A stretch of DNA of 20,000 nucleotides from an uncultured virus (IMG/VR IMGVR_UViG_3300035181_002953) (lineage: Duplodnaviria; Heunggongvirae; Uroviricota; Caudoviricetes). This document shows positions 2,417-20,000 of this stretch, piece after piece. The notes under the pieces were generated by a model. That model was not told the DNA's origin, did not search any database, and worked only from the letters and a program-made list of their open reading frames with translations. Each line of letters begins with the position of its first letter. The stretch's first letter is position 1. The position numbers and the translations under genes were made by a program. The stretch lies in IMG/VR virus record IMGVR_UViG_3300035181_002953; one strand, written 5' to 3'.

Positions 2417-2448
2417 GTGGATCGTGTACGGAGGCTCGGGCGGCGGAA

Positions 2449-4793: not shown

Positions 4794-4797
4794 CCGA

Positions 4798-5250
4798 TTA
4801 CTCGTCGTTCCAGCACTGGCAGCCGGCATCGCCGCCGCAGTGCCGGCAGACGTTCTGATTCATCCACCCGTTCACCTCGGAGATCTCTTCGTCCGTCGCA
4901 TCCTCGAGCCACGCGAGGATGTTCGCCGCCGGGGCGCGCGCCGGGGCGGCGTCGCGCGCCGTGCCGCGGGGCTCGAGCTCACGCGCCGACTCGTGCGGGA
5001 TCAGGTCGTACTTCCGAAGAAGATCGACCACGGCTTTCAGGGCCGCCATCTCGTCGCCGTCCGGGAAGCACGCGACGAACTGATCCGTGTGACGCACGCC
5101 GTCGGGGCCGTTCGAGATCGTGTGGATGTAGTCGATCAGGATCGTCCGCGTGCCGACGTTCTGTCCGATGGCCCGGAACGCCGCGCGCAGGCGGTAGTTC
5201 TCGTCGCGCAGCTCTTTGTTCAGCTGCTCTTGCGTCGGCGCCGCCGTCAC
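4798..5250 (-). CDS. hypothetical protein with C-terminal CxxCG...CxCWNDE motif
   Basis: GTGA overlap start; ends VCRHCGGDAGCQCWNDE with TAA stop. Confidence 0.75.
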   Translation of the reverse strand: MTAAPTQEQLNKELRDENYRLRAAFRAIGQNVGTRTILIDYIHTISNGPDGVRHTDQFVACFPDGDEMAALKAVVDLLRKYDLIPHESARELEPRGTARDAAPARAPAANILAWLEDATDEEISEVNGWMNQNVCRHCGGDAGCQCWNDE

Positions 5251-5537
5251 GATCCCTCCGGCGGAGGCGGCTCGACGGGCGGCGGCATCGTCGGCGGGCA
5301 GATCTTGAGCATTCGTGCCCGGGCGCGCTCGATCGACGCCGTCAGCTCGTCACGAAGAAACTCTGCCTGGTCGACGGTCAAGTTGTGGAAATGCCACTCA
5401 CCATCGTCGGCCTCGAAATCGACCGCCAAGGTTCCATTGGACTGCACCCCGACCGAAATCTCCGATTCCATGCCGACCTTCCCGAGGGTTCGCCACCAGA
5501 CGACGACCCTCCGCCATGCCCGCGCCGTCGTTCCCAT
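5247..5537 (-). CDS. hypothetical protein, first gene of the leftward arm
   Basis: ATG 5537 lies 9 nt after the predicted -10 (near-leaderless); alternative ATG 5471 has AAGG upstream; Pro-rich C-terminus. Confidence 0.65.
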   Translation of the reverse strand: MGTTARAWRRVVVWWRTLGKVGMESEISVGVQSNGTLAVDFEADDGEWHFHNLTVDQAEFLRDELTASIERARARMLKICPPTMPPPVEPPPPEGS

Positions 5538-5546
5538 CCCGCACGC

Positions 5547-5575
5547 ATCATGCACACCGTGCGCATGACGGTCAA
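5547..5575 (-). promoter_or_regulatory. sigma70-type leftward promoter TTGACC-N17-CATGAT
   Basis: -35 at 5575-5570, -10 at 5552-5547, exact 17-nt spacer, at the strand-switch point. Confidence 0.7.
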
Positions 5576-5584
5576 GCAAAACGA

Positions 5585-5613
5585 TTGACAGACGGATCTC
5601 GGCCCAGCATGAT
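5585..5613 (+). promoter_or_regulatory. sigma70-type rightward promoter TTGACA-N17-CATGAT
   Basis: -35 at 5585-5590, -10 at 5608-5613, 17-nt spacer; ATG 5622 follows 8 nt later. Confidence 0.75.
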
Positions 5614-5621
5614 GCAGCACT

Positions 5622-5879
5622 ATGAACACGAGGCGCGACACGGGGCGCGACGAGGAGCCCCTCCCGCAGGTAGCAGCGGCGCAGAAACGGCTGCTCGAGC
5701 AGTGGTCTGGATTCCCGATTGGGACGCGGGTGGTTCTCTCGCAGGGAGGCCGCGAGATCCAGACGCAGACGACCAGCTACCCGGCGATGTTCGGCCCGTT
5801 CGCCGTCGTGTGGCTGCGCGGGATCACGGGCGCGCAGCGCCTCAGCAAGGTTCGCGTCGCGCTTGCGAGGGTCGCGTGA
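5622..5879 (+). CDS. phage hypothetical protein (85 aa)
   Basis: FPIGTRV...TTSYPA...AVVWLRGITG resembles a recurring small phage family (recalled); directly after the promoter. Confidence 0.75.
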   Translation: MNTRRDTGRDEEPLPQVAAAQKRLLEQWSGFPIGTRVVLSQGGREIQTQTTSYPAMFGPFAVVWLRGITGAQRLSKVRVALARVA

Positions 5880-6082
5880 GCGCAGCGCCGAAGAAGGTGC
5901 TCGCGTACATCGATCCGCCGCCGTACATGCTCCGGGAGGTTGCGGCGCGGCACCAGCTCGACCCGCGGACGCTCATCCGGGCCTACCGGGGCGAGGCGAT
6001 TCGTGGCGCGGCCGTCATGGGGCGCGCCGAGGTAGCCGTGACGGAGATGCGGAAGCTGATGGCACGGAAGGGGAAGGTCTGA
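5876..6082 (+). CDS. helix-turn-helix DNA-binding protein (68 aa)
   Basis: GTGA overlap; MLREVAARHQLDPRTLIRAYRG is a LacI-like HTH pattern. Confidence 0.65.
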   Translation: MSAAPKKVLAYIDPPPYMLREVAARHQLDPRTLIRAYRGEAIRGAAVMGRAEVAVTEMRKLMARKGKV

Positions 6083-6085
6083 GGA

Positions 6086-6424
6086 ATGGCGACGGTCACT
6101 CGGAAGTTTCAGCACGCACTCTCGGTCGCCGAGGCGAAGTCCCGGTGCGACAAGGCCTTCGACCACTACCGCTCGCAGTTCCCTGGCTACACCATCACGG
6201 TCACGTGGCCCACGGCTACCGAGGCCAAGGTCGGCGTGCAGCTGACGCCGATGATGAAGATCGCGTGCACGGTGACGCTCGGCCAGTCGTCGGCGCAGCT
6301 GAACGTCACGTACCCGGACGCGATCAATATCCTGCGCGGCGGCAAGAAGATGGTCGAGAAATACATCGACGTCGTCGACGCCGAGATCCGCAGCTGGCTC
6401 GAGCGGGGTAGGCCGAGCGAGTGA
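6086..6424 (+). CDS. polyhydroxyalkanoic acid system family-like protein (PF09650/TIGR02610-like)
   Basis: HALSVAEAKSRCDKAFDHYRSQF...VTW...VDAEIRSWLE pattern and ~110-aa size; GAGGA immediately upstream. Confidence 0.6.
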   Translation: MATVTRKFQHALSVAEAKSRCDKAFDHYRSQFPGYTITVTWPTATEAKVGVQLTPMMKIACTVTLGQSSAQLNVTYPDAINILRGGKKMVEKYIDVVDAEIRSWLERGRPSE

Positions 6425-6696
6425 GACTGATGTCGGACAAGCCGCGCACGATGAAGTGCGGAACCCACGGGAAGAAGCCGTGGAAGGGCACGATCGTGTG
6501 CTCGGCGTGCAACCTGCCGTGGCAGATGCTCGACGAGCACGGGCCCTACTACGCGCCGCGGGTCTGCACGTGCGGCGCGCAGCTCATGCCGGCGAGCGCG
6601 GAGGACACGACCTTCAAGGGGCGCACCGCCTGCGACGTCTGCTGGCAGTGCGTCGTTCGTGAGTTGGAGAGCGAGCGGGCGGAGGGTGCTTCGTGA
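6421..6696 (+). CDS. Cys-rich zinc-binding protein
   Basis: CGTH, CSAC, CTC and CDVC motifs; GTGA overlap (alternative ATG 6430). Confidence 0.7.
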   Translation: MRLMSDKPRTMKCGTHGKKPWKGTIVCSACNLPWQMLDEHGPYYAPRVCTCGAQLMPASAEDTTFKGRTACDVCWQCVVRELESERAEGAS

Positions 6697-6914
6697 CGGG
6701 CGACGGCTGGTTCGACAAGGTGTATGACTACCGTCGGTCGTCCGACGTGTGGCTCCGTCGGCGCGAGGACGAGTCGTGGGACACGTTCAAGGCGCGCGTG
6801 AACACGGCACGCGGGTGCCTCACGCTCGCGCAGCAAACCGCGGACATCGAAGTTGTGCTCGATTCGCTGCGCGAGGCCGCCTGCGCGATTCGTGGCGACT
6901 CGCCTGGTCTCTGA
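6693..6914 (+). CDS. hypothetical protein (73 aa)
   Basis: GTGA overlap with GGAGGG RBS upstream. Confidence 0.7.
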   Translation: MTGDGWFDKVYDYRRSSDVWLRRREDESWDTFKARVNTARGCLTLAQQTADIEVVLDSLREAACAIRGDSPGL

Positions 6915-6925
6915 GGGGGATGGCA

Positions 6926-7471
6926 ATGGCGTCTGGACGGGCTGGCGTTGGCCGGCGGCTTCTCGAGTGGGGCTCGCGCGCGGCGTGGTCGGCGGTCGAT
7001 GCAGTGCTCGATCACGAGCCTGTCCTCAGCTGGGACGAGCTCTGGCGCGTCAAGATGGCGCTGAGTGACGAGGTCATCGCGCGCGGGAAGCGCATCGAAG
7101 AGCTCGAGGCTGAGCTCGATAAGCAGGAGCGCATCGGGCTCCGCCTGGTCGACCAGCTGTCCGAGCTCCAGATCCTCCAGAAGCGGCACTACGAAGAGCG
7201 GAACCACTACCGGGCGATGATGAACCCGTCGCCGCGGGTCGGGACGACGACGGACCGCGCGGTCCTCGGGTCCGTGATCGCGCGGATCGCGAGGAAGGCG
7301 TGCCGCAACGGGGAAGCCGGCAATCGCGAGTGGCCGAGGCTCTCGCAGCTGCCCGACGATCCGTCGTGGTGGTGCGTGGGCGACGAATATGTCGACCAGG
7401 TGATCGATGCGCTGCTCGAAGGCAGCATGTTCGAGGTGCCGCAGCCGGTGGCGGAGCGGAAGGTGGAGTGA
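6926..7471 (+). CDS. coiled-coil hypothetical protein
   Basis: GAGGGGG upstream of ATG 6926 (alternative 6920); heptad-like RIEELEAELDKQERIGLRLVDQLSELQIL. Confidence 0.7.
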   Translation: MASGRAGVGRRLLEWGSRAAWSAVDAVLDHEPVLSWDELWRVKMALSDEVIARGKRIEELEAELDKQERIGLRLVDQLSELQILQKRHYEERNHYRAMMNPSPRVGTTTDRAVLGSVIARIARKACRNGEAGNREWPRLSQLPDDPSWWCVGDEYVDQVIDALLEGSMFEVPQPVAERKVE

Positions 7472-7608
7472 AGGGGGAGCGAGAGATCGTTCGGTCGTGG
7501 CCCATCGCCGCGGCGATGGACCTGCTGGGGATGCTCATGCTGTTTCTGGTGGCGTGGGCAGCGGTAGAGGTAGTGCTTTTTCTCGGGGAGGTGTGGGCAT
7601 CATGGTGA
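7468..7608 (+). CDS. small membrane protein (46 aa)
   Basis: GTGA overlap; LLGMLMLFLVAWAAVEVVLFL hydrophobic segment. Confidence 0.55.
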   Translation: MKGEREIVRSWPIAAAMDLLGMLMLFLVAWAAVEVVLFLGEVWASW

Positions 7609-8177
7609 AGCGCATCGCGTCGGCGATGAAGAACGATCCGAACCTCGACCAGCTGATCCTGGACGTTCTGGCGGAGAACCAGACCGGGAAGGGATTGAGC
7701 TCGTACGAGGTCGCGCTTGCCGTGCAGGAGGAGCGCATCGTCACGGGGCCAACGTCCGGGCGCACGCGCGCGCGCCGGCGGGTGGGCGTCACGCGTGCGG
7801 AGAAGCTCGCGGTTCAGGACCGGCTCTTCGAGCTGTCCATCGGTGGCGACCGTGGATGCGTGCGTCTCGACGAGGACCAATGGCTCGGCGCGTGGCCATC
7901 TTGGCATGGGGCAGTGACCGCGGCGGCGGAGGTCGTGGAGCCGCAGATCTTCGACCAGCCGATGGCCTTCACGTTCGACCTCGGCGCGACGGTGCTCGTC
8001 GCGAACGGCGGCCGGCTCATCCTCGAGCACCGGGACGGTGTTCTACAGATCTCGCTCGGCTTCGGCCGTGAGGTGCGCGTGGTGGGCGAAGCGAGTACGC
8101 AGCTGTCGGCGGGCGGGGTGATGAACATCCGAGCGGTCCTGTGCCCACCCAAGCAAATCGAAATGGAGGAACCGTGA
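7602..8177 (+). CDS. hypothetical protein, possible N-terminal winged helix
   Basis: GGAGG upstream; LDQLILDVLAENQTGKGLSSYEVALAV is wHTH-like; beta-rich C-terminal half. Confidence 0.65.
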   Translation: MVKRIASAMKNDPNLDQLILDVLAENQTGKGLSSYEVALAVQEERIVTGPTSGRTRARRRVGVTRAEKLAVQDRLFELSIGGDRGCVRLDEDQWLGAWPSWHGAVTAAAEVVEPQIFDQPMAFTFDLGATVLVANGGRLILEHRDGVLQISLGFGREVRVVGEASTQLSAGGVMNIRAVLCPPKQIEMEEP

Positions 8178-8503
8178 TCATCTTCGCAGACCTGAAAGCC
8201 ATGCTCGACACCTTCACGCCCGAGCAGCTGGCGATGCCGGTCCGCTGGTGGGGCAACGAGCGGGGCGGGGTGATCGACTCGATCTCCGCGCTCAGCGAGG
8301 CGCACGTCCACCTCGGCGAGGGCTACGAGCCCCGGAGCGGCTACGACCCGAGCAACCCCGAGGACGCCGAGGTGCTCGCCGACGCCATCGATGAGCTGCC
8401 GAAGGGCACGCCGATCCTCTGGGTCGACGAGGACGACATCGATAGTCGTGACAACGGTCCCATTACCGACTTCGAGAAGCCTGTTCCCGCGGAGAAAGAG
8501 TGA
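8174..8503 (+). CDS. acidic hypothetical protein (109 aa)
   Basis: GGAGGA RBS and GTGA overlap. Confidence 0.75.
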   Translation: MIIFADLKAMLDTFTPEQLAMPVRWWGNERGGVIDSISALSEAHVHLGEGYEPRSGYDPSNPEDAEVLADAIDELPKGTPILWVDEDDIDSRDNGPITDFEKPVPAEKE

Positions 8504-8976
8504 TGACGACGCTGACGAAAGAGGAGAGGGTGGAGCTGCTCCGTCGGTTCGACGCGAAGGAGACGCTGACGACCGAGGAACAGGCCGTCGCCGAGAAGAT
8601 GATCTGGGACGCGTTCAAGACGCTTCGGTGGCGCATGTGGTCGGACATGATGGAGATCGAGCTCGCGATCGATCTCAAGCTCGACGAAGAGTGCCGCGCG
8701 CTCGAGAACATGCTCGTCTATGGCGTCTCGCACCCGACGGTCGAGGAGGAGTGCAAGCTCACGATCACCGTCGACCGCGTTCTCGACGGCGAACCGAGCC
8801 CCAAGGTCTTCGAGCGCTGGGTCAAGACGCGTGGCACCATCATGCCGCGTACCGTTGTCACCAAGGGGATGAGGGTCGAGCTCTCGGTGCCCGGCGCGAC
8901 GCTCTACGGACGCGTGCTCACGATTCCGGTCACGCTCCCCCAGGTGATGGCCATGGTGAAGGTGGGCGGCGGATGA
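8500..8976 (+). CDS. hypothetical protein (~158 aa)
   Basis: GTGA overlap; GC3-rich codons. Confidence 0.75.
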   Translation: MMTTLTKEERVELLRRFDAKETLTTEEQAVAEKMIWDAFKTLRWRMWSDMMEIELAIDLKLDEECRALENMLVYGVSHPTVEEECKLTITVDRVLDGEPSPKVFERWVKTRGTIMPRTVVTKGMRVELSVPGATLYGRVLTIPVTLPQVMAMVKVGGG

Positions 8977-9167
8977 AAACGGATCGCGCCTACCCGAGCC
9001 GGTCGCGCGTCCGGCGCACCGCGCTCTCGAACGGTCTTCTGGACATCGATGGCCCGACGCGGTGGCGCGAGTGGGGACGAAAGAGCCGTGAGGCGGAGCT
9101 CGCGTTCCGGCTCTGCTACCCGGTCAACGACCAGATGAGGGCGGACCTTCGGAGGGCGTACGCATGA
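8973..9167 (+). CDS. basic hypothetical protein (64 aa)
   Basis: MKTDRAYPSRSR...; ATGA overlaps on both sides. Confidence 0.65.
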   Translation: MKTDRAYPSRSRVRRTALSNGLLDIDGPTRWREWGRKSREAELAFRLCYPVNDQMRADLRRAYA

Positions 9168-9613
9168 GCGGCTGCCCGATGATCACGAGCCCGAGCTTCG
9201 AGGGATCGCCGGAGGTCGAGTGCGGCAAGCCGATCCTGATCCTCCCGGCGGACAAGGAACGGAACAACATGCCGAGCGAGGGCGTGTGCGTGGACTGCGC
9301 GCGCGCCCTGCTGCGAGAAGACCTGCTCATGCCGGCCGAGATCGTCGCGCTCGAGAACGTCGACGCCATGCTCTACCGCTGCCCAGGACACCTTGCCGTA
9401 CCCTGCGGCGTGGCGTGGACGCGAGGCGAGCTCTTCGTGCCGGGCGGCAAGACGATGCTCTGTACGCCGTGCTGCTGGCTCCCGCCTGCCGCGTACGCGC
9501 CGCCGGAGATGATCGCCTCGCTGCAGGCGCAGGCGGCCCGTGGCGCGGCGCTTCAAGCGTGGGTCGAGCGGAATGGTGTCGAGGTGCCGGACGATCTGCG
9601 GGTGCTCACGTGA
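9164..9613 (+). CDS. Cys-rich hypothetical protein (149 aa)
   Basis: GGAGGG RBS, ATGA overlap, several Cys pairs (CVDC, CTPC). Confidence 0.7.
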   Translation: MSGCPMITSPSFEGSPEVECGKPILILPADKERNNMPSEGVCVDCARALLREDLLMPAEIVALENVDAMLYRCPGHLAVPCGVAWTRGELFVPGGKTMLCTPCCWLPPAAYAPPEMIASLQAQAARGAALQAWVERNGVEVPDDLRVLT

Positions 9614-10236
9614 CCGGCATCAGCGACTCGTACATGGCACTGCTCGGCCTGCCGCCGGACGAGATCCGCAGCTCCCAGACCTTGCACGCGGCCATGCTCT
9701 CTCTTGCGAAGCTCGACCCTCGGGTAGCGCTTTCGATTCTTCGAGGTGATGCACGGTTGACCCCGCAGCTGTACGAGATGAGGGGGCCCTTCTATGCCAC
9801 GGAGGCGGGTGCCACTCTCGAGCTCAGCTACGACCAGCATCACGTCGCCACGGCGTTCATCTGCTGCGACATCTCGTATTCATTCAAGACGGCCGAAGGC
9901 GAACCCATCGTCGAGCACGGAATCGACGCGTTGCTTCGCGTGGTTGGCGGCTACTACATGCAGTGGATATTCTCGCCGACGCCTGAGCCCATTCAGAACA
10001 TCGCTCGGCCCAGCAAGTACGTCCCGTTCCTTCTGAGGTTCCCTCAGGAAATCAGGACGTCGCTCGTGCTCACGAAACCGTGCCCGCCGAAGGCTCAGAT
10101 CGCGATCATGTTCCATGGCCTCGACGTCGAGTCCCGCGCGCTCCACGACAACGTTTCGTTGACGGAGGCGAGGATGCGCCTCGCGCTCGAGTACGACGTC
10201 GGCATCGGGGACCAGGACGAGGACGTGTCGCCGTGA
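9610..10236 (+). CDS. beta-rich hypothetical protein (208 aa)
   Basis: GTGA overlaps on both sides; more A/T-ending codons than its neighbours. Confidence 0.7.
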   Translation: MTGISDSYMALLGLPPDEIRSSQTLHAAMLSLAKLDPRVALSILRGDARLTPQLYEMRGPFYATEAGATLELSYDQHHVATAFICCDISYSFKTAEGEPIVEHGIDALLRVVGGYYMQWIFSPTPEPIQNIARPSKYVPFLLRFPQEIRTSLVLTKPCPPKAQIAIMFHGLDVESRALHDNVSLTEARMRLALEYDVGIGDQDEDVSP

Positions 10237-10445
10237 GCCGGCGCGCGTGGCCCCACCTGCCCGTCGATCTGACGGGCGTCGCGTGGAACGACCTCCGCGT
10301 GGATCTGGGCGACTTCGCAGCGACGCCGCCGAACCTCTGCAAGCACGAGCATGGCGCGTGCGAGGCGTGCGGCACGACGGAGCGGCGAGACGCGGTGCAT
10401 GTGACCCGCGGTGACAAAGGACGTGTCGGACGCATCCGACGCTGA
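10233..10445 (+). CDS. small Cys/His protein (70 aa)
   Basis: GTGA overlap; CKHEHGACEAC motif. Confidence 0.65.
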   Translation: MSRRAWPHLPVDLTGVAWNDLRVDLGDFAATPPNLCKHEHGACEACGTTERRDAVHVTRGDKGRVGRIRR

Positions 10446-10460
10446 GGAGGAAGACGACCC

Positions 10461-10961
10461 ATGAGCATCATCGAGCAGCAGACGATCATCGAGCCGAAGG
10501 TAGAAGCCTGCGCGCGCGCCGCGCACGAGGCGAACCGGGCCTACTGCCTCGCCATCGGCGACGCGAGCCAGGCCCACTGGGAGGACGCGGAGGAGTGGCA
10601 GCGGGAGAGCGCGCGAAACGGCGTGGTCGTCGCGCTCGGCGGCGCGACGCCGGAGCATCAGCACGCGGCGTGGCTCGCAGACAAGGCGGCGGCGGGTTGG
10701 AAGTACGGGCCGGTCAAGGATCCGGAGAAGAAAGAGCATCCGTGCTTCGTGCCGTATGCCGAGCTCCCGGAGAACCAGAAGGCCAAGGACCAGCTCTACA
10801 TCTCGTCGGTGCGGTGCATGGCGGCGGCGCTCGGCATGACCGTCACGTACCCGCCGCTGCCCGCCGTCGCGGCGGACGGCCCCTTCCCTGCGCAGGCGGC
10901 GTACCCGGGACACACGGTCGACTGGTCCCTCGCGCAGAACTCGAAGCGGGACCAGGTCTGA
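10461..10961 (+). CDS. phage RyR-domain protein (PF02026-like)
   Basis: GAGGAGG RBS; AHEANRAYC...HAAWLADKAAAGWKYGPVKDPEKKEHPCFVPYAELPENQKAKD is the RyR repeat signature. Confidence 0.9.
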   Translation: MSIIEQQTIIEPKVEACARAAHEANRAYCLAIGDASQAHWEDAEEWQRESARNGVVVALGGATPEHQHAAWLADKAAAGWKYGPVKDPEKKEHPCFVPYAELPENQKAKDQLYISSVRCMAAALGMTVTYPPLPAVAADGPFPAQAAYPGHTVDWSLAQNSKRDQV

Positions 10962-10964
10962 ACG

Positions 10965-11144
10965 ATGCCTTGGGTTCTCGGACATGACGACCACGAGGTG
11001 GAAGAGCGCGAGGGCAAGCTCTTCTGCGTGACCTGCCAGCGGCACGTGCCGCGCGAAGGCGAGGACGAGTCGGGAGTGTCCGTGGAGCCCGACCTGCACG
11101 ATCAAGACGTGGCGGCGGACGTGAAAGTGAGGGTGACCTGGTGA
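10965..11144 (+). CDS. small acidic protein with CxxC (59 aa)
   Basis: Translated by hand: MPWVLGHDDHEVEEREGKLFCVTCQRH...VRVTW*; its TGA overlaps the next GTG. Confidence 0.65.
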   Translation: MPWVLGHDDHEVEEREGKLFCVTCQRHVPREGEDESGVSVEPDLHDQDVAADVKVRVTW

Positions 11145-11365
11145 GCTCGATTACGAAGATGACCCTGTATCTGGGCGCGCCATCGCGCCGCCGCCGGCGG
11201 GAGGGCGACCGCAAGAGGATCCGCGGCATCGAGCACCTCTGCCAGCAGGTGATCGCGGAGGGGTGCTACCTGGTGAGCGACGGCCGGCCGGTGCTCGAAT
11301 GGGTGCCGGTCGACCAAGCGCGCGCGACGCTCGAGCTTCGCGCAATCCGTGCTCGACATGGCTGA
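11141..11365 (+). CDS. hypothetical protein (74 aa)
   Basis: GTGA overlap with GAGGG upstream. Confidence 0.6.
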   Translation: MSSITKMTLYLGAPSRRRRREGDRKRIRGIEHLCQQVIAEGCYLVSDGRPVLEWVPVDQARATLELRAIRARHG

Positions 11366-11660
11366 ACCGTCGAGACCAAAATCGTCGGCGCTTCGCGTCT
11401 GCGAGGCCGCGGTGCTCGTGCTTCGCGAGACCAAGAACCCGGCGATCATGTGGGGTGACGCCGGGCTCGCTCACCTGATCGCCGAACGTGCACAGTTGAA
11501 GACGCAGAACAGATCGTGGAAGACGGAAGAGGCGGTGCTCGCCGCGCTCTCTCGACAACCGGGGGAGCTCGTTGCGGGCACGACGCTTCACCCTCGCTTC
11601 ACCAGGCGGCGCGTGCGCATCTTCTGGTTGCCCGAATGCGTCCCGGAGCGCCTACGATGA
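11358..11660 (+). CDS. hypothetical protein, possibly winged-helix-like
   Basis: MAEPSRPKSSALRVCEAAVLVLRETKNP...RVRIFWL; 8-nt overlap with the upstream gene. Confidence 0.65.
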   Translation: MAEPSRPKSSALRVCEAAVLVLRETKNPAIMWGDAGLAHLIAERAQLKTQNRSWKTEEAVLAALSRQPGELVAGTTLHPRFTRRRVRIFWLPECVPERLR

Positions 11661-11815
11661 TTCTCGCTCGGCAGCCTCTTGCCGAGACTTCGCCATGCGC
11701 AGATTCGAATGCCTCGGTCTGCCCGCGGGTCCGCCCCGCTGGCAGTGCGAGCCGCACGAACGGCTTCCGGGTCCGACCGGACCTGGCATCGCCCCGACCG
11801 GGGCACGGAGCATGA
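11657..11815 (+). CDS. small hypothetical protein (52 aa)
   Basis: ATGA overlaps at both ends, but the composition is unconvincing. Confidence 0.4.
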   Translation: MILARQPLAETSPCADSNASVCPRVRPAGSASRTNGFRVRPDLASPRPGHGA

Positions 11816-12963
11816 CCATGCAAACCGAATCGTCTCTTTCCGCTCTTCTTCTCCGCGCTGCCGAGGGCGCCATCCGGCGCGCGCGAGAGGCGGAGAGCTC
11901 GGCCGACGCGCTGCGCATCACGAAGGCGCAGGCGGACGTCGCGGAAGCCGTTGCCCTGTGGGGCGACACGCCGATCCCGGCAGCCGCCGGCGAGTACGTC
12001 TTCAACGTCGCGACGCTGAGCTCTGCGCGCGAGGTCGAGACCGCAGCATCCCGCGCGATCTGCCGCCTCGGCGACCCGAAGGTCATCGCGCGCTTCAACA
12101 GCGGCGAGTGCGACGAGGGCAGTGATCTGGAGTTCCCGAAGCTCGTCGAGAAGATGTGGATCGCCATCGGGGATGGCAAGGACGCTCCGTTCGCCGATGA
12201 GCACCCCGCGACGGCGGCGGAGGTGCGTCGTCGCGTCGACGCGTGGATCGCGCTGCCCGAGGACAAGTGGTTCATAGGCGGCCACGCGGTCCTCGTTCTC
12301 GTGGGCCTCGGCGGCAGGACGTACGAGGAAGACGTGCGCCGGCGTCTCGGCATGGAGGACGAGTACAACCGCAGGAAGATCGTCGCCGATTCGTACTACG
12401 TGGATCGTCGCGCGAAGCGCGAGGCAGCGGACGCGCGCAAGATCGATATGATCGAGATGATCGTCGACATGTTTGGGAGCGACGATCTCAAGGCGGGTCG
12501 CGCCGAGAAACTGATCTCGAACTCCGAGGTCGTTCACCTGCTGTGGTCGAAGGTCTTCAGGCCGGAGACGCCGAAAGATCTCGTGATCAGCGCTGTCCAC
12601 CGGATCGACCAGGCCAACTGGTACTACGACTACGGCTACGGCGGGGACTGGCCCAATGACGTCTTCTTCGGCGCCGACGACAAGATCGAGCCGGTGGAGC
12701 GCGTCTCGCTCGAGGCGTACAACGCCTTCAGCGCGCTCCGCGCGCGGATGCGCACGGAGACCGGCGATCCGCGCGACATCCTCTCGCATCCGTCGTGGAC
12801 GGGCGCGCAGCTCGCGATGTTCAATCCCGTCACGATCGGGTGGGCGCTCGAGCGCGTCCGCTCGGATCTCACCACCACCCGCCTCTACGTGGCGCGGTGC
12901 AAGGTCTCGTTCAACGAGAACACGATCACGCTGACCGCGCGCCGCTTCCTCGGCATGGCGTAA
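11812..12963 (+). CDS. hypothetical protein (383 aa)
   Basis: MTMQTESSLSALL...RRFLGMA; ATGA overlap, TAA stop, strong GC3 bias. Confidence 0.8.
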   Translation: MTMQTESSLSALLLRAAEGAIRRAREAESSADALRITKAQADVAEAVALWGDTPIPAAAGEYVFNVATLSSAREVETAASRAICRLGDPKVIARFNSGECDEGSDLEFPKLVEKMWIAIGDGKDAPFADEHPATAAEVRRRVDAWIALPEDKWFIGGHAVLVLVGLGGRTYEEDVRRRLGMEDEYNRRKIVADSYYVDRRAKREAADARKIDMIEMIVDMFGSDDLKAGRAEKLISNSEVVHLLWSKVFRPETPKDLVISAVHRIDQANWYYDYGYGGDWPNDVFFGADDKIEPVERVSLEAYNAFSALRARMRTETGDPRDILSHPSWTGAQLAMFNPVTIGWALERVRSDLTTTRLYVARCKVSFNENTITLTARRFLGMA

Positions 12964-13194
12964 ATCCCGGGGCGCCCAGTCCGGATCCTCTTCCTGGTCC
13001 CCGTCGATGTAGACGGGGATGGCGAGCTTGCACGTGTCGCAGACGGGCGGCGCGGTCCAGCCGCCCTCGTACGTGAGCCACGTCTCGATGTCGTCGTCCC
13101 CGAGGCGCTTCTTGAGCGCCTTGGGGATGCAATCCGGGCAGTACGTCGCATCTTCCCCGTGGACGAACACCTCGGGCTTTCGTTCCTTGGCCAT
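12961..13194 (-). CDS. zinc-ribbon-like protein (77 aa if it ends at the TTA codon)
   Basis: MAKERKPEVF...YCPDC...VCDTC...DPDWAPRD, then TTA at 12963-12961. The standard code would continue 454 codons antisense to the 11812-12963 gene. Confidence 0.65.
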
Positions 13195-13204
13195 GGCGGC
13201 ATCC

Positions 13205-13381
13205 TAACAAGGGTGCGGCCCGATGTCCCGAGATCAGCGCACGGCTGACGTGTCGAACGACCTGCGCGCGGCACGGAACGCAGTCGCATCCGTCCTTGGG
13301 CGTGGGCACGCCAAGGAAGCGCGCGAGCCGGTGGAGGCCCGCGGCGCGCGCCTTCCACAGCTTGCGGGAGTCGATCGTCAC
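13205..13381 (-). CDS. small basic protein with CxCxxC (58 aa if it ends at the TTA codon)
   Basis: GTG 13381 in GTGA overlap; VTIDSRKLWKARAAGLHRLARFLGV...GCDCVPCRAQVVRHVSRAL; TTA at 13207-13205, 10 nt before the next ATG. Confidence 0.55.
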
Positions 13382-13863
13382 TCTTTGGCGTGGAAGAGCG
13401 CTTTTCGCTCCTCGTGAACCTGATCCTCGGCCTTCCAGTATTTGGCCGCTGCGCCCTCGGGCCAGTCGGCGAAACTGTGACCGTACTTCTCGGTGATCGC
13501 GGCGCGCTCGGGGAAGAGCTCGCGCATCCTCTTCTCGGTGAAGAGCCGCTGCGCGTTCGCGAAGCGCTTCTCGAGCTTGTTCGCGATGTCGACGAGCGCG
13601 GACACGGACACCACCGTGAACGAGTAGGTGGCGAAGAACCCGAACGGCGTCGAGAAGACGAGCGCGCCGTGCTTCTTGCTGAGCTCGCTCAGCCTCTCCG
13701 AGCTGTTCCACACGTCGTTCAGCGCTTCCTGCATCCGATCGGCCGACCCGAGCCTCGACTCGATGTCGCCGTGGACGGTGGTGAGGAGGAGCATGATGTC
13801 CTCACCCTCCGGCATCTCGATGTAGAAGCGCCCGTCCTTCTCGGTGGTGTTCAAGTTCAACAT
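13378..13863 (-). CDS. hypothetical protein (161 aa)
   Basis: GAGG upstream; strong codon bias. Confidence 0.8.
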   Translation of the reverse strand: MLNLNTTEKDGRFYIEMPEGEDIMLLLTTVHGDIESRLGSADRMQEALNDVWNSSERLSELSKKHGALVFSTPFGFFATYSFTVVSVSALVDIANKLEKRFANAQRLFTEKRMRELFPERAAITEKYGHSFADWPEGAAAKYWKAEDQVHEERKALFHAKE

Positions 13864-13875
13864 GACAGGCCCGCC

Positions 13876-14199
13876 TCAGATGCAGTTGTAGCCGTGCTTC
13901 TCGGGGACCGCGACGGCCTTGCCGCTCTCGCAGTCGCGAGGCTTCGGTACGAACGTGCCGGCGGGCTGCCCCTTCGGGCAGTACGTGCGGCCGTCGGCGA
14001 GCGGGATTGGCATCTTGCCGTTCGGGCAGGTCGCGCTCGTCGTGATGGTGCCGTTCGCGCTGTCGAACGTCGGCGCGGCACCGGCGGCCGGCGCCGGCCC
14101 GGCCGCCGCGCTCTTTCGCGTGAGGGCGTAGGCGACGAGGCCGAGACCCGTCACGCCGACGAGCCCGTAGCCGATTTTGACTCCGGTGGAGAGGGCCAT
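13876..14199 (-). CDS. N-terminally membrane-anchored protein with two Cys-bracketed modules (paralog 3)
   Basis: TM IGYGLVGVTGLGLVAYAL + TRK, Ala/Pro linker, CPNGK...YC and CESGK...YNC. Confidence 0.8.
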   Translation of the reverse strand: MALSTGVKIGYGLVGVTGLGLVAYALTRKSAAAGPAPAAGAAPTFDSANGTITTSATCPNGKMPIPLADGRTYCPKGQPAGTFVPKPRDCESGKAVAVPEKHGYNCI

Positions 14200-14202
14200 G
14201 GG

Positions 14203-14634
14203 TCAGCCGGTGCAGATCGAGAGGGGGATCCCCGGGACCTGGACGCCATGCCCGCTGTCGCACTCGACGGCAGGGTTGATGACCTGCTCGCCCGTACCCG
14301 CGCCGCCGCAGATGTAGACAGGACCGGGGAGGGCCTGCTTGTACCCGTACTTGCACCCGCTGGGCTGGAACGATGCCGTGTGGGCCTCATACGGGCCGCT
14401 GCCGGGGATCAGCTTGCCCGTCCAGGTGCCAGGGCCGGCACCAGCGCCGCCCGGGGCGCCGCCGCCCGCACCCGGCGCGCCCGGGGCGCCGCCGCTGCCA
14501 CCCTTGCCGCCGCTACCCGCCGCGCCGCCCGCGGCGGGCGTGGTAGCAGCCGGCTTCTTGAAGGCGTAGGCGAGGGCTCCGAGGGCAGCGAGGCCGATGC
14601 CCCCGGCGATTGCGTAACGAGCGTTGGGATTCAT
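14203..14634 (-). CDS. N-terminally membrane-anchored Gly-rich protein with Cys modules (paralog 2)
   Basis: TM AIAGGIGLAALGALAYAF + KK, Gly/Ala linker, TWTG...GCKYGYKQALPGPVYIC...ECDSG...PLSIC. Confidence 0.85.
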   Translation of the reverse strand: MNPNARYAIAGGIGLAALGALAYAFKKPAATTPAAGGAAGSGGKGGSGGAPGAPGAGGGAPGGAGAGPGTWTGKLIPGSGPYEAHTASFQPSGCKYGYKQALPGPVYICGGAGTGEQVINPAVECDSGHGVQVPGIPLSICTG

Positions 14635-14868
14635 GGGCTGTGTCCTTCAGGTGCAGAGGTAGAGCGGGTTGCCGGGGGTCTTCGTGCCCTTGCCGCTGTC
14701 GCATTCGAGCTCGGGGTCGGCGACCTGCTGGAAGGGCCCCGCGCCGCCGCAGATGTAGAGCGGGCCGGGGAGGGCCTGCTTGTAGCCGTACTTGCACCCG
14801 GTCGGCTGGAACGACGCCGCGCGCGCTTCGTACGGCCCGTTGCCGGGGATCGGGAAGCCCGTCCAGGT
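14299..14868. repeat. imperfect direct repeat (~14299-14428 vs ~14740-14868) from duplicated coding domain
   Basis: Shared CGCCGCCGCAGATGTAGA...CCGGGGAGGGCCTGCTTGTA.CCGTACTTGCACCCG...GGCTGGAACGA...GCCGGGGATC. Confidence 0.85.
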
Positions 14869-15198
14869 GCTCGCGGGGGGCGCCGCCGGGTCTTCGTGAT
14901 CCGACGTGTCGATCACGCAGTGGCCGTTTGCGTCGGCCTTGTAGATGCCCTGCGGATCGAGTCCCTGCGCCTTCGCCTGCGCGTCCGTGCACCAGCTGCC
15001 GGGCGCGGGGAGGGCCGAGGCGCCACTGCCGTTTCCCTTGCCGCCGGCGCCGCCACCGCTGGGCGCGCCGCTGCTGCCGCCGGTCCCGCCGCCCTTGGCG
15101 GGCGCCGCGTCGGCGGGCTTCCGGAACGCGAAGTACGCCCCGATGCCGGCGATTGCGACGACGCCGCCAGCAACCGCGAGCCGCGCGCCGTCCTTCAC
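14647..15198 (-). CDS. N-terminally membrane-anchored Gly-rich protein with Cys modules (paralog 1)
   Basis: GTG 15198 in GTGA overlap; TM LAVAGGVVAIAGIGAYFAF + RK; C-terminal domain closely similar to that of 14203-14634. Confidence 0.85.
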   Translation of the reverse strand: MKDGARLAVAGGVVAIAGIGAYFAFRKPADAAPAKGGGTGGSSGAPSGGGAGGKGNGSGASALPAPGSWCTDAQAKAQGLDPQGIYKADANGHCVIDTSDHEDPAAPPASTWTGFPIPGNGPYEARAASFQPTGCKYGYKQALPGPLYICGGAGPFQQVADPELECDSGKGTKTPGNPLYLCT

Positions 15199-15308
15199 GG
15201 CGTCACCTTGGCCGGGGCGGCTTGCGCCGCCTGGGGGCTCACGCGTCCGTGCTCGAGCAGACCGATCTTCTTCTGGGCCCGCAGGCGCCGACGACGCTTC
15301 CATCGCAT
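15195..15308 (-). CDS. small Arg/Lys-rich peptide (37 aa)
   Basis: MRWKRRRRLRAQKKIGLLEHGRVSPQAAQAAPAKVTP*; ATG 7 nt after an extended -10; its TGA overlaps the next GTG. Confidence 0.55.
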   Translation of the reverse strand: MRWKRRRRLRAQKKIGLLEHGRVSPQAAQAAPAKVTP

Positions 15309-15315
15309 GAGCAAG

Positions 15316-15324
15316 ACGATACCA
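15316..15324 (-). promoter_or_regulatory. extended -10 element TGGTATCGT (leaderless start)
   Basis: TGn-TAnnnT 7 nt before ATG 15308; TCGACA lies 18 nt upstream of the hexamer. Confidence 0.5.
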
Positions 15325-15379
15325 CCGCTCTCGCGGACGTGTCGAGCGTGTCAAGGCCGTTCTCCGGCGTCCCGAGGCC

Positions 15380-15388
15380 TGATACCGT
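15380..15388 (+). promoter_or_regulatory. extended -10 element TGATACCGT (leaderless start)
   Basis: 7 nt before ATG 15396, no Shine-Dalgarno; same 9-mer at 17108. Confidence 0.6.
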
Positions 15389-15395
15389 ACGTCTC

Positions 15396-16172
15396 ATGTC
15401 GGCCTTCGGCGCGCTCGCTCGTCTTGCTGGATTCATCGGATCCGGCAATCCGCTCTACGACTGGGCGCGCGAGGTGACGCGTGCCGTCGGAAGCGGCGGC
15501 GGGGGCGGAACGCCGTTCCTCAACATGCGTGTCGACCTCAGCGTGAACTCGGCCCGCGTCGAGCAGGTCTACTCGAGCTCGATGTTCATGCACTGCCAGA
15601 CGGGCGGGAACTCACCTGGCGGCTTCGCTGGCGGCGGCACCGGGAACAAGTCGATCGTGGGCTTCCAGGTCGGCAACGGTCTCCCGCTCGGGCAGCTGCA
15701 TTCGTTCTCGTGGACGTGGCTCGATCTCCTCTCGTACATCTCGGGCTTCGTCGTCTATTCGAACCTCGTGCTCGATGTGAACGGCGACGGTTCGCTCTAC
15801 AAGATCATCGTCATCGACTCATCGACGCAGGCAGCCCACCCGAACCTCGACACGTGCACCGTGACGGTGAACCCCGACGGGTCCGTGACGACCGCGTGGG
15901 ACGCGACGAAGAACATCCAGATCGTCAACGGCATCGCCGGCGTTGTCCCGGTGGTCGACGACGGCCCCATCTGGAACCAGCAGTCCTACCGGATCGCCGA
16001 CATCCTCGCCGTCTACCCGAACGCGACGCTCCGGCAGGCGTTCAGTGGTGACGGGGGCCTCCCCGCGAACACCATCACGCCGGCCTTCATGCTCGTAACG
16101 GGGGACAGCGGGAACAACGTCATCCGCGCCTTCCGCATCACCCTGGTCCGCTTCAACGGAGCGATCGTCTTA
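15396..16172 (+). CDS. beta-rich putative virion spike/adhesin protein A (258 aa to TTA; standard stop at 16196)
   Basis: MSAFGALARLAGFIGSGNPLYDWAREVTR...DLSVN...GGGTGNK...YKI...GDGGLP...ITPA...NGAIV; paralog of 17123-18044. Confidence 0.8.
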
Positions 16173-17110
16173 TGTCCTGGCCCTTCGACTTGCTGAACCG
16201 CACTGCGAAGTTCCCCGCGGGTTCCGACGAGTGGAACCTCTTGCAGGCGCTCTGCCGCGCGGCGGCGTCCTCGGGCGCGTTCGCCTACGAGCTCGCCTAT
16301 CAGCCCGGCGGCGCGCCCGGGCGCCCGGGCGTCTTCTCCGATTTCGGCGCCCTCGCGGAGCGGGCGCGCTCGATCCCCGGCCAGAAGATCATCACGTTCG
16401 ATCCGTCGTTCCTCACGCCGGGCGTACCGATGCCGATCGCGCCGGGGTTCTACGACTTCCGCGCGCCGGCGGGCGCGGGCGGCGGCGGCGCCGACACTGT
16501 CTGGCGCACGGACCCGTCGCGCTTCCCCGCGCCCTTCACGATCGAGCTCGCGGACGGCGTGACGATCGACGGCGTCTCGACCTTCCGGGACGTGCGCGTC
16601 GTCGCGCAGAACACGAGCGCGCCCGTCATCGTTGCGGGGCCCGGAGACACCGGCTGGTTCCTGCAAGGGTGGGGCATGGTCCGGAACGACGGGACGAAGC
16701 CCTTCATCGACGATGCCGTCGTGGGTCACAATACGCTTGTCCAGGTGTCCAACGACGCCGAGCTCGCGACGGGCGCGAACAACGCGCCGTTCATCCGCAT
16801 GAGCGCGACGCCGCAGAGCATGACTGTCCTCACGCAAGACGAAGCGCTCGTCGACGCGAACGTCCTCGCGGGCGTCGCCGGAAACACGTACGGAGCGCGT
16901 ATCGGGTCCGCGTCTGGCCAGATCGTCAATCCGCAGATCGGCTTGCCGGGCGGCGTGATCGCCATCGCCTTCGGTGAAAACGACCTCTACATCCAGCACA
17001 ACTCGCCCCCGAACCCGCTCGTATGGGTCACGCTGCCGGGGACCACGTTCCAGGCCATCGAGCGCATTGCCGCGGCCCTCGCCGTGCGAACGGGTGCGCC
17101 CATTCCGTGA
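16172..17110 (+). CDS. putative virion fibre/beta-helix-like protein (312 aa)
   Basis: Gly/Ala/Val/Asn/Thr-rich body; short helical C-terminus WVTLPGTTFQAIERIAAALAVRTGAPIP; function inferred from composition and context. Confidence 0.75.
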   Translation: MSWPFDLLNRTAKFPAGSDEWNLLQALCRAAASSGAFAYELAYQPGGAPGRPGVFSDFGALAERARSIPGQKIITFDPSFLTPGVPMPIAPGFYDFRAPAGAGGGGADTVWRTDPSRFPAPFTIELADGVTIDGVSTFRDVRVVAQNTSAPVIVAGPGDTGWFLQGWGMVRNDGTKPFIDDAVVGHNTLVQVSNDAELATGANNAPFIRMSATPQSMTVLTQDEALVDANVLAGVAGNTYGARIGSASGQIVNPQIGLPGGVIAIAFGENDLYIQHNSPPNPLVWVTLPGTTFQAIERIAAALAVRTGAPIP

Positions 17111-17116
17111 TACCGT
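17108..17116 (+). promoter_or_regulatory. extended -10 element TGATACCGT (leaderless start)
   Basis: 6 nt before ATG 17123; its TGA is also the upstream stop codon. Confidence 0.6.
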
Positions 17117-17122
17117 CGCGGG

Positions 17123-18044
17123 ATGTCGGCCTTCGATGCACTCACGCGGCTCGCGGGCTATATCGGCTCGGGTAACCCCCCTCTACGACTGGGCTCGTGA
17201 GGTGACGCGGAGCGCCGGGGGCGGGACGAGCGTCGTCCGGTACCCGAACCGCTACGACCTCTCGGTGAACAACGCGCGCGTCGAGAACGCGGCGGCGTCG
17301 GTCGCGTCGATGATCACGGGGACCGCGACGGCCGCGGCCGGCAGCTACATCGGTGGCGGCACGGGAAACAAGGCGCTGCTCGGGTGCAAGGGGCACGACG
17401 GTCTGCTGCTCTCGGCGCTCCAGTCGCTCGAATGGTCGTGGGAGCTCGTGGGCTTCCAGGATCCGAACCCGAGGTTCTACGCGCCGTACCTCAACATGCA
17501 GGTTCAGCTGACGACCGGCGAGTACAAGATCCTGGTGGTCGACCCGAACGTCACGGGCCTGAATCTCGGCACGCTCACCTCGCTCGGCGCGAACAAGTTC
17601 CGCTTCCGCCACGACACGAGCGTCAACTTCGTGTCCGTCGGCGACGCCTTCTCCGCCCGCCCGGCCAACCCCGCGCTCGGCCTCGTCGACATGCCCCTCG
17701 TCTGCGATCCGGTGAACCCGCCGAGCGCGCCCGGGACCACGCCGAACCCCGTCGCCTATGCCGCCGGGCCGCCGCCGCCCGTTGTGCCGGCACCGATCAT
17801 TCCCGGCACGTGGCCGGGCTACAGCTTCCGCTACACGGACATCCTCGCCGTGCCGGGGTGGTCGGGGGCGAAGCTCGTCGACGTCTTCATCGGGGACAAC
17901 GGGCTCCCGGGCCCCGCGCCCACGATCGGCTCGCCGGGCGGGCTCATCACGCCGGCCGTTCTGCTCTCACTCGGGAACAGCGGTTTCCACGACCAGCGCA
18001 ACCTCCGCGTGTCGTCGATCCTGCTGAACGGAGCTCCGGCGTTA
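17123..18044 (+). CDS. beta-rich putative spike/adhesin protein B, +1 frameshift at C6 run 17176-17181 (standard stop at 18161)
   Basis: MSAFDALTRLAGYIGSGNP in one frame and LYDWAREVTR...NGAPA in the +1 frame; colinear with 15396-16172. Confidence 0.75.
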
Positions 18045-18069
18045 GGCCGATACGACCGCCGATCGGGCG

Positions 18070-18078
18070 TGATAGCGT
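18070..18078 (+). promoter_or_regulatory. extended -10 element TGATAGCGT (leaderless start)
   Basis: 7 nt before ATG 18086; one mismatch to TGATACCGT. Confidence 0.55.
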
Positions 18079-18085
18079 CGGCTGG

Positions 18086-19087
18086 ATGGAACACAAGAAC
18101 CACCATCTGGCTAGTCACATCAACCACCACGAGCTGCGCTCGGACAATACCCTGCACGTGATTGGCGTGCTGGCAAACCCGGCGCGATTTCACTCTCGCT
18201 ACCGCCTCGCCCGAGAGTGGCAAGAGCACATGGCGGGCACCCCAAACGTGAAGCTCCACATGGTGGAGTCTGCGTTCGGGGATCGGCATCACGAGGTCGT
18301 CGACGGCCTCGACAGCGTTCTCCGTCTCCGGACCAACAGCGAGATCTGGACGAAGGAGAACATGATCAACCTGGGGGTGAAGCACCTCCTCCCGGTGGAC
18401 TGGAAGTACGTCGCGTGGGTGGATTGCGACGTGCACTTCCGCGACCCGAACTGGGCGCAGGAAACGCTGCACATGCTCCAGCACTGGCCCATCGTGCAGC
18501 CCTGGATGCAGTGCGCGGACCTTGGCTTCCGAGGCGACATCCGAAACACCGATCACAGCTTCGGGTACCTCTGGCACAACGGGAAGATCCCCGAGCATCA
18601 CTCGAAGCACCGGATGAAGGACGGCTACCCGTACGAGAACTTCATGTACGGACACTCTGGCTACGCGTGGGCCTGCACCCGCGCGTTCTGGGAGCAAGTC
18701 GGCGGCCTCATGGACTGGTGCATCCTCGGCAGCGCCGACCACCACATGGCCTGGGGATGTGTGGGGAAGATCGACGACACGATCAACGGCAACTGCGATC
18801 CGGCGTTCTTCCGTAAGGCTCACGAATGGCAGGCGCGGGCGATGCGCGCGTGCCACGCGCAGGTCGCGTACGTGAACGGCCGCATCGAACACAACTTCCA
18901 CGGGCCGAAGGGGCGCCGTGGGTACCGTGACCGGTGGAAGCTCCTCATCGAGCACAAGTACAACCCGGACGTCGACCTGATGTACGACGCGCAGGGGATG
19001 ATCCAGCTCGCCGGCAAGCCCGCGCTCGAGCAGGCCATCCGCCTCTACAACCGCAGCCGCGGAGAGGACTCGATCGAAGACGAGTGA
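18086..19087 (+). CDS. glycosyltransferase-like protein (GT-A fold, DxD motif), 333 aa
   Basis: WTKENMINLGV...KYVAWVDCDVHF...GHSGYAWACTRAFWEQVGGL...GSADHHMA...HNFHG. Confidence 0.75.
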   Translation: MEHKNHHLASHINHHELRSDNTLHVIGVLANPARFHSRYRLAREWQEHMAGTPNVKLHMVESAFGDRHHEVVDGLDSVLRLRTNSEIWTKENMINLGVKHLLPVDWKYVAWVDCDVHFRDPNWAQETLHMLQHWPIVQPWMQCADLGFRGDIRNTDHSFGYLWHNGKIPEHHSKHRMKDGYPYENFMYGHSGYAWACTRAFWEQVGGLMDWCILGSADHHMAWGCVGKIDDTINGNCDPAFFRKAHEWQARAMRACHAQVAYVNGRIEHNFHGPKGRRGYRDRWKLLIEHKYNPDVDLMYDAQGMIQLAGKPALEQAIRLYNRSRGEDSIEDE

Positions 19088-19089
19088 GG

Positions 19090-19401
19090 TCAGCCGAAGC
19101 GTACGGCTTCGTGAAGCTCGGGGATCTCGGCGAGGTCCACGTACGAATCCCCGGGCCTCATGTACCCGAGCCATGAGCCGTGCGCGTCGAGGATGCTCTC
19201 GCCGTTGTCGCTCGCGAAGCCGCGGAACGTGTAGACCTGCTCACGGAGCATCTGATCGTAGATCAGCCGCGCCGCCTTCGGCCCCACCTTCCGCATCCGC
19301 GCCGCGCGTCGGAGCGCGAGACGCGGATCGGTCGGGCGCACGACGGCGAGCGCGTCGACAGACCCTCGCATGAACGGATCCGCGAGGTTTCGGCAGCTCA
19401 C
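19090..19401 (-). CDS. hypothetical protein (103 aa)
   Basis: GTG 19401 in GTGA overlap with GGAGG-like AGAGG upstream; convergent with the glycosyltransferase-like gene. Confidence 0.65.
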   Translation of the reverse strand: MSCRNLADPFMRGSVDALAVVRPTDPRLALRRAARMRKVGPKAARLIYDQMLREQVYTFRGFASDNGESILDAHGSWLGYMRPGDSYVDLAEIPELHEAVRFG

Positions 19402-19823
19402 CGGCGCCTCTTGGCCTTCGCGAGCTTCCGGATCTGCTTGCGGGCGGCGTGAACGCGCTTGAGGTAGCCCTTGTCGCCCGGGTTGTAGAGCGCAATGGCC
19501 CCGCCGCGCTTGCAGGCCTCGTTGTCCGGGTGCTCTTTGCAGTACGTGCGGTTCGTGTCGAGGATGACCGCGATGGCGCGGACGTTGGCGTCCGGGCTCT
19601 TGAGGTGCTCGACGACCACCGGGTCGCAGCCCGGCACGTTGATGCCGCCGAGCCCCACTGAGCACGAGCCGTTCGACTCGTGCTTCACGATGTCCGCCTG
19701 CCCCCGGCTCTCGACATGGGCGATGGCCATGATGAGGTCCGGGTCGACGTGGTGGGCCTTCCCGTGGTCCTGCGCGAGCGCGAGGATGGAGAGCGCGCCG
19801 GCGAAGAGAGCGAGCGGGTTCAT
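19398..19823 (-). CDS. lytic transglycosylase (SLT domain) with N-terminal hydrophobic signal
   Basis: VDPDLIMAIAHVES (catalytic Glu), SVGLGGIN (GLxQ-like), P.ANV and AIALYN motifs. Confidence 0.85.
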   Translation of the reverse strand: MNPLALFAGALSILALAQDHGKAHHVDPDLIMAIAHVESRGQADIVKHESNGSCSVGLGGINVPGCDPVVVEHLKSPDANVRAIAVILDTNRTYCKEHPDNEACKRGGAIALYNPGDKGYLKRVHAARKQIRKLAKAKRRR

Positions 19824-20000
19824 CGGTGCTTTCCCGTGAGAGACCGCGCCCGCGCGCTGCCGCGGATGGCGGCCTCGAGCTTGTGGGCGTTCCCGCTCTC
19901 GAACTCGGCCCTATCCGTGACGAACCACTCCGACATCGCGCCGGCCACCGTGCGGAGGGCGAGCGAGATCTCGGTGCCAACCGACCACGCGGTCGTGCCC
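19820..20000 (-). CDS. hypothetical protein (5'-truncated by window edge)
   Basis: ...GTTAWSVGTEISLALRTVAGAMSEWFVTDRAEFESGNAHKLEAAIRG...KHR*; its TGA overlaps the SLT ATG. Confidence 0.65.
   Translation of the reverse strand, partial: GTTAWSVGTEISLALRTVAGAMSEWFVTDRAEFESGNAHKLEAAIRGSARARSLTGKHR

Follow-up and report, generated by a model that had tools for sequence, protein, structure and literature searches.

The window analysed here is a stretch of 20,000 nucleotides (nt) from an uncultured virus of the class Caudoviricetes (IMG/VR record IMGVR_UViG_3300035181_002953), which amounts to about a quarter of a contig of ~77 kb (76,668 bases in the contig bearing a near-identical protein). It has a GC content of 67% and holds about 43 closely packed genes, few of them of known family; the recognised families are a 5'-deoxynucleotidase, a RyR-domain protein and a lytic transglycosylase. 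DNA of the window is present in four DNA runs (X1 to X4), from sediment and microbial mat; the runs listed with it include no RNA run, which tells nothing either way. Could the codon TTA, which is read as leucine (Leu) in the ordinary code, act as a fourth stop codon in this virus? Such a role had been proposed in the first-pass annotation of the sequence, and it is supported here by homologs that end at the TTA column and by the presence of the same TTA sites in three of the runs.

The four TTA codons and their genes

TTA occurs 16 times on the two strands of the window, and only four of these codons are in frame with credible genes. They are the four that the first-pass annotation had picked out, all of which were recovered by the count on both strands. 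Site 1 (13205..13207, minus strand) is followed by G and ends the gene of a protein of 58 amino acids (aa) (13208..13381, minus strand), 10 nt before the next ATG and within an AGGA ribosome-binding-like stretch. Site 2 (12961..12963, minus strand) ends the gene of a small protein of 77 aa (12964..13194, minus strand), which contains CxxC/CxxH-like cysteine pairs and is inferred to be zinc-ribbon-like. The same three bases, read from the opposite strand, form the TAA stop of a convergent gene (11812-12963, plus strand).

Sites 3 and 4 end two paralogs on the plus strand. Paralog 1 (15396..16169, 258 aa), a beta-sandwich protein of unassigned function with a weak resemblance to lectins and carbohydrate-binding modules (CBM), is ended by site 3 (16170..16172), whose last base is shared with the next ATG (TTATG). 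The gene that follows (16172..17110, plus strand, 312 aa) is coupled to it by this one-base overlap, in the manner of the TGATG couplings. Paralog 2 (17123..18041) is ended by site 4 (18042..18044), which stands after the residues NGAPA and is followed by G; the next gene (18086..19087, plus strand, 333 aa) has relatives, L110 and L111, that are 81% identical. The start of paralog 2 is irregular. The frame opened by ATG 17123 is broken at a run of six C (17176-17181), so that the N-terminus, which resembles that of paralog 1, lies out of frame in an open reading frame (ORF) of 25 codons, whose TGA (17198-17200) stands one base before GTG 17202. From this GTG there are 280 open codons up to site 4, with a GC content at third codon positions (GC3) of 0.94. 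The run of six C is ungapped in the contigs of X1 to X4, and the frameshift is fixed; it may reflect a pseudogene, a +1 frameshift at CCC-C or re-initiation.

Three genes of this region are preceded by the -10-like motif TGATASCGT (15380..15388, 17108..17116 and 18070..18078, plus strand), located 6-7 nt before the ATGs. Three copies were found where 0.07 would be expected, and they are probably -10 elements of leaderless transcripts.

The set of 43 genes was curated from frame-specific GC and ORF layout. These genes end in TGA (35), TTA (4), TAG (2) and TAA (2), and TTA is absent from their 6,129 internal codons, including all 471 codons for Leu. TTG occurs internally 19 times and TCA nine times, so both remain sense codons. 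It is the placement of TTA at gene ends, not its internal absence, that exceeds chance. By a hand estimate, the probability that four random single-change stop losses from TGA would all yield TTA is about (1/8)^3 = 0.002. A classifier based on coding score, which sorted codons into internal and terminal, was dropped as too noisy, since within the window it placed TTG among the terminal codons 13 times.

The layout of the genes depends on how TTA is read. As Leu, it produces overlaps of 25, 76 and 269 nt, as well as an antisense run of 1.36 kb (454 codons) at site 2; as a stop, it leaves the neighbouring genes coupled by one base at site 3, separated by 41 nt at site 4 and 10 nt at site 1, and overlapping convergently by three bases at site 2. 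Genes with a standard stop overlap the next start by no more than 8 nt, save one case of 32 nt, which rests on the choice of ATG 4829 and is gone if the in-frame GTG 4793 is the start. In addition, GC3 falls past each TTA (from 0.95 to 0.43, from 0.88 to 0.66, from 0.78 to 0.38 and from 0.93 to 0.55). These counts reproduce what had been stated before for sites 1 and 2 (a protein of 58 aa with the next ATG 10 nt away; a protein of 77 aa, or else 454 further codons) and bear out the TTATG coupling at site 3, the overlap of 76 nt upon read-through at site 4, and the remark that TGA, TAG and TAA still serve as stops while TTG occurs internally.

Contigs of X1, X2 and X3 span all four TTA sites (9766-20000 in X1; 2193-13521 and 13657-20000 in X2; 11273-20000 in X3), with no gap and no letter changed there. 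Within those spans, X1 and X2 have no other letter that differs and X3 has two (16143 and 19403). X3 is a variant, with 25 differing letters across its three listed pieces, and it keeps every TTA. In X4, site 2 is unchanged, and the piece that covers site 4 differs from the window at 10 letters, not all of which were located. It should be noted that contigs, not reads, were compared, and that all three runs are possible sources of the window DNA; the agreement of X1 to X3 rules out a slip in a single assembly, not rare variants. The first-pass annotation had cautioned that one extra T would restore TAG at sites 1 and 4. Since the X1 to X3 contigs show neither gap nor change at the sites, this caveat is unsupported.

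Homologs at the TTA columns

Paralog 1 was aligned with 27 homologs besides its own variant, the 11 closest of which share 49-57% BLAST identity with it. All 11 end in Asn-Gly-x-x-x directly before the TTA column, and among the 27, 16 end exactly at the column, one ends three residues earlier, 10 have one to three residues more, and none has four or more. With read-through, paralog 1 would be longer by 8 residues and paralog 2 by 39. At the DNA level, 70 loci were fetched, which gave 50 distinct ends where the match reached the C-terminus (the motif rule may have set the anchor wrongly in two of the rows, L005 and L039). The codon at the TTA column is a standard stop in 30 of these 50 relatives (TGA 15, TAG 10 and TAA 5); 16 others stop within four residues, four run long, and none has TTA. 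For example, one and the same ending is followed by different codons, NGAPA-TGA in L025, NGAPA-TAA in L056 and NGAPA-TTA in the window, and the protein P0003 also ends in NGAPA. When ORFs of the window and of 69 related sequences were compared all against all, TTA was found opposite the stop of a homolog at site 3 (31 hits) and site 4 (6 hits). The only other pairing of this kind is a single hit in L022, which was rejected as a further case, as its frame looks non-coding; internal TTA in the relatives aligns mostly to Leu.

At the two small genes the comparison is consistent with the same ends. Five short homologs of the site 1 protein have 48, 52, 52, 53 and 71 aa, compared with 58 aa up to TTA, and read-through would give 151 aa and span the whole next gene. 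Both homologs of the site 2 protein end before the TTA column, P0029 (71 aa) by six residues and P0060, in which the domain of the site 2 gene is located at the C-terminus, by five; neither the 77-aa nor the 531-aa form was found in the database. Residues after any TTA are conserved in no homolog examined for sites 1 and 2 and for the paralog family. The alignment to homologs that the first-pass annotation had suggested as a check thus favours a TTA stop: at sites 3 and 4 the evidence is exact, TTA coinciding with the stop column of the family, and at sites 1 and 2 it is consistent.

In relatives that carry the paralog family, and in the two large phages whose counterpart of the gene after site 4 is 81% identical, TTA is read as Leu, and for this reason a TTA-stop code does not come with the gene family as such. 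No locus of the family was found in the genome collection, and the contig of the window itself turned up neither in the viral contigs nor among the 66 metagenome loci. The structure model of paralog 1 has a predicted local distance difference test (pLDDT) score of 85.6, with 73 for the last block, and does not decide about the tail. The model has no PDB match at E ≤ 0.001; among viral structures it comes closest to that of an uncharacterised protein of Pandoravirus japonicus (E 5e-11, template modelling (TM) score 0.59), followed by weak lectin-like and tail proteins.

Explanations of the terminal UUA

On the strength of gene ends and homolog columns, we consider it likely, with a probability of roughly 0.7, that UUA is read as a termination signal during translation of the mRNA of this phage. 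The larger part of that probability goes to a changed host release factor, taken by itself slightly short of an even chance, and the rest to near-cognate release or rescue at an unassigned codon or to a phage factor encoded elsewhere. In such a course of events, strong GC pressure would have emptied TTA from the genes of host and phage (codon capture), and the tRNA-Leu(UAA) of the host would have been lost or have gone out of use. A class I release factor of the host, most likely release factor 2 (RF2) changed at Ser204 by analogy with labyrinthulean mitochondria and peDinoflagellate plastids, would then end translation at UUA, and single substitutions from TGA or TAA to TTA would be neutral and could have drifted into about a tenth of the phage gene ends.

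Several observations weigh against termination at UUA. There are only four sites, seen in 20 kb of a ~77 kb contig, and exact column evidence comes from sites 3 and 4 only, which are paralogs. Third-position bias would predict 0.8-2.1 internal TTA codons, so that their absence is not significant, and other internal codons are nearly empty as well (ACA 1, ATA 2). Ten of the 50 relatives have Leu at the TTA column (CTG, CTT, CTA or CTC), with a stop within four residues after it, and paralog 2 may be decaying, given its fixed frameshift near the start. The 20-kb window contains no release factor; it also shows no tRNA, which counts on the same side, and no Rfam match.

To these points are added the outcomes of the searches for an organism, a release factor or a second phage of this kind. 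A probe made of the end of ribosomal protein S9 followed by TTA gave four hits in 185,579 species genomes and no TTA-stop organism, although one highly expressed gene with one spacing makes this a weak negative. Two of the hits were not S9, and two lay in genomes with internal TTA in release factor genes and a normal RF2 SPF motif. RF2 with Ala or Gly at the Ser position was found in none of 401 genomes of the phylum Acidobacteriota and in none of the viral contigs, the Cys form not being searched in either, while a control with Ser-type RF2 matched 373 of the 401 (the genome tallies include three unpublished genomes, G312, G184 and G209). A second TTA-stop phage was found neither among the relatives nor with the probes: the end of dUTPase followed by TTA had 12 hits, none in frame at the dUTPase end; a DDIPF-type end followed by TTA had one, internal and at 52% GC; none of 134 candidates from the site 2 family probe was confirmed; and RF2 as a query for TTA-stop phages returned nothing.

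Individual candidates were also rejected. G007, one of the Acidobacteriota-phylum genomes, looked promising but was dismissed as host: only 12 nt separate its TTA from the end of a contig, and internal TTA is present in its genes for release factor 1 and an rfaE-like protein. In L087 (G007) and L085 (G005), ribosomal S9 is followed by TTA though the assemblies otherwise use TTA as Leu, and these two are likely to be assembly errors. As possible TTA-stop relatives, G001 to G004, L015/L016, L110/L111 and G010 were discarded with internal TTA present, and L055 and L060 with TTA 2-9 codons before standard stops and no homolog support; loci low in TTA, such as L008, L009, L011 and L041, offered no informative site. 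Two gene ends of L055, near 2700 and 4753 (plus strand), share TTACGTCA-N3/4-TGACGCA, which suggests a repeated binding site rather than a TTA stop, and a related 75-kb phage (G002) has a transfer-messenger RNA (tmRNA) gene at 14427-14768 of L073.

How else could four genes come to end in this way? Under the ordinary code, four accessory or decaying genes could each have lost a stop to Leu-TTA and acquired a C-terminal tail. TGA and TAA are each one change from TTA, which is Leu in all relatives examined, and relatives that run on most often have Leu at the column (10 of 50); the tail of paralog 1 would amount to merely 8 residues, and paralog 2 is frameshifted near its start. However, all four losses would have led to one and the same codon, the rarest, with none among 471 internal Leu codons, and they would have left tails of 93 and 454 residues on proteins of 58 and 77 aa and overlaps of a length comparable to none in the standard-stop genes. 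Upstream GC3 remains at 0.84-0.94 without internal stops, and the X3 variant retains all four TTA, so we hold independent stop loss to be improbable. Sequencing or assembly error could be suspected where sites 1 and 4 are one T short of TAG and where a second apparent indel is seen at 17176-17181, but the separate assemblies of X1 to X3 agree, ungapped, at the four sites and at the C run, while X3 shows 25 other differences, and an error at all four sites is hardly credible.

A limiting tRNA, as in the bldA system of Streptomyces, might instead make ribosomes pause at UUA and then either drop off or move by +1 onto UAG, with read-through when the tRNA is charged. The TTAG of sites 1 and 4, which offers an immediate TAG in the +1 frame, would suit such a hungry codon. 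Excerpts of PMC10732093 describe for Streptomyces (adpA and the terminase of phage Hau3) a very rare UUA at high GC, and, in the upstream ORF (uORF) of adpA, UUA-G with a proposed 1-nt push to the stop. There, by the same excerpts, UUA encodes a conserved Leu inside a gene or in a uORF and is followed by functional sequence, whereas TTA in the window is terminal, stands at the stop column rather than ahead of a second domain, and has no conserved tail; internal UUA with conserved downstream sequence was not found in the window. Sites 2 and 3 are without an overlapping stop, the read-through products are unconserved in any homolog, and the host hint is not Streptomyces, which together leave a stalled ribosome a rather poor prospect. 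Each gene might also be fused to the next by a programmed -1 frameshift or by bypassing at UUA. In favour of this, the -1 frame at sites 3 and 4 continues without a stop into the gene downstream, and excerpts of PMC10732093 support bypassing induced by UUA for a Streptomyces phage terminase. But an open -1 frame at site 3 is a consequence of any one-base coupling, no slippery run lies ahead of TTA at site 3 or 4, the gene after site 4 is preceded by a motif of its own, and the scheme fails at sites 1 and 2; fusion of this kind is very unlikely.

Window context, host and comparable codes

Outside the TTA finding, the sole hint of a host is a PF09650-like gene (6086..6424, plus strand), whose nearest Atlas clusters (scores 0.84-0.88, TM 0.75) occur most often in Myxococcota and weakly suggest a high-GC Myxococcota-like bacterium. 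PF09650 was not found in 151 genomes of the phylum of G008, nor in plasmids, and no Myxococcota appeared among the matches listed for RF2 in plasmid and phage records (60 of 91 and 40 of 73). Elsewhere in the window, back-to-back sigma-70-like promoters (TTGACC/TTGACA, 17 nt, CATGAT) occupy 5537-5622, 8-9 nt upstream of two divergent ATGs, and 13876-15198 (minus strand) holds three related genes without a PHROGs match, each with an N-terminal hydrophobic helix, a Gly/Ala/Pro linker and a Cys-containing C-terminal part. A 9-base deletion variant occurs at 1567 in X1 and X3, close to the start of the gene 1575-1306. Each of X1 to X3 also has a contig ~85-90% alike to 18134-18339 and 18979-19088, in which both stretches adjoin; it represents a co-occurring relative in which the copy of the gene is shortened.

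UUA as a stop was found published only for some mitochondria and plastids; no bacterial or phage case was found, most subscription papers and supplements lying outside the coverage of that search. According to excerpts of the sources, UUA joins UAA, UAG and UGA as a fourth stop in Thraustochytrium and labyrinthulean mitochondria (PMC10752896; NCBI table 23), and the labyrinthulean mitochondrial mtRF2a has Ala, Gly or Cys for Ser204 (PMC12574857). Excerpts of PMC12574857 further report that UUA and UCA are stops in peDinoflagellate plastids, where RF2 has Ala, Gly or Cys for Ser204, the plastomes are without the cognate tRNA and the new stops end a third to over half of the genes, and that UUA and UUG are stops in the mitochondria of Marsupiomonadales and Pseudoscourfieldia; the plastid UUA stop is termed there the first outside mitochondria.

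The window is like table 23 in having UUA, here a probable fourth stop, where homologs end, but table 23 belongs to organelles with a documented change in mtRF2a, whereas the window comes from a bacterial virus of 67% GC. It would work like table 23, yet it is no member of those organellar lineages: its PHROG hits are of phage type, its relatives lie in viral contigs and its GC content is 67%. With the plastids and the other mitochondria it shares the type of evidence, a codon only at homolog-defined 3' ends, and it would also share release factors of bacterial type. It differs from them in keeping TCA (9) and TTG (19) as sense codons and in using TTA at about a tenth of its gene ends. The loss of the tRNA and the changes of the release factor are shown for the plastids and proposed for the host of the phage.

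Phages are also known to recode stop codons, with TAG read as Gln or TGA as Trp. These phages are similar in using a code other than table 11, by which gene callers are misled; the direction is different, since stops become sense codons there and a sense codon would become a stop here. A consequence for annotation is the database entry P0001, which is paralog 1 with the 8-residue tail. As for the available tools, Codetta cannot detect new stops (excerpts of PMC8629427), and gTranslate covers tables 4, 11 and 25 (excerpts of PMC13695967).

We give about even odds to the broader proposal that a free-living high-GC lineage, possibly of the Myxococcota, has turned UUA into a stop by losing tRNA-Leu(UAA) and changing a release factor, and that the phage records the code of its host. 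If true, a bacterium would have reassigned a sense codon as a stop, a kind of change for which the published genome-wide screens were not designed. It would call for an additional translation table and would possibly offer a culturable model for codon capture and for the widening of release-factor specificity. Such a code would also be predicted to form a host-range barrier to phages with internal TTA.

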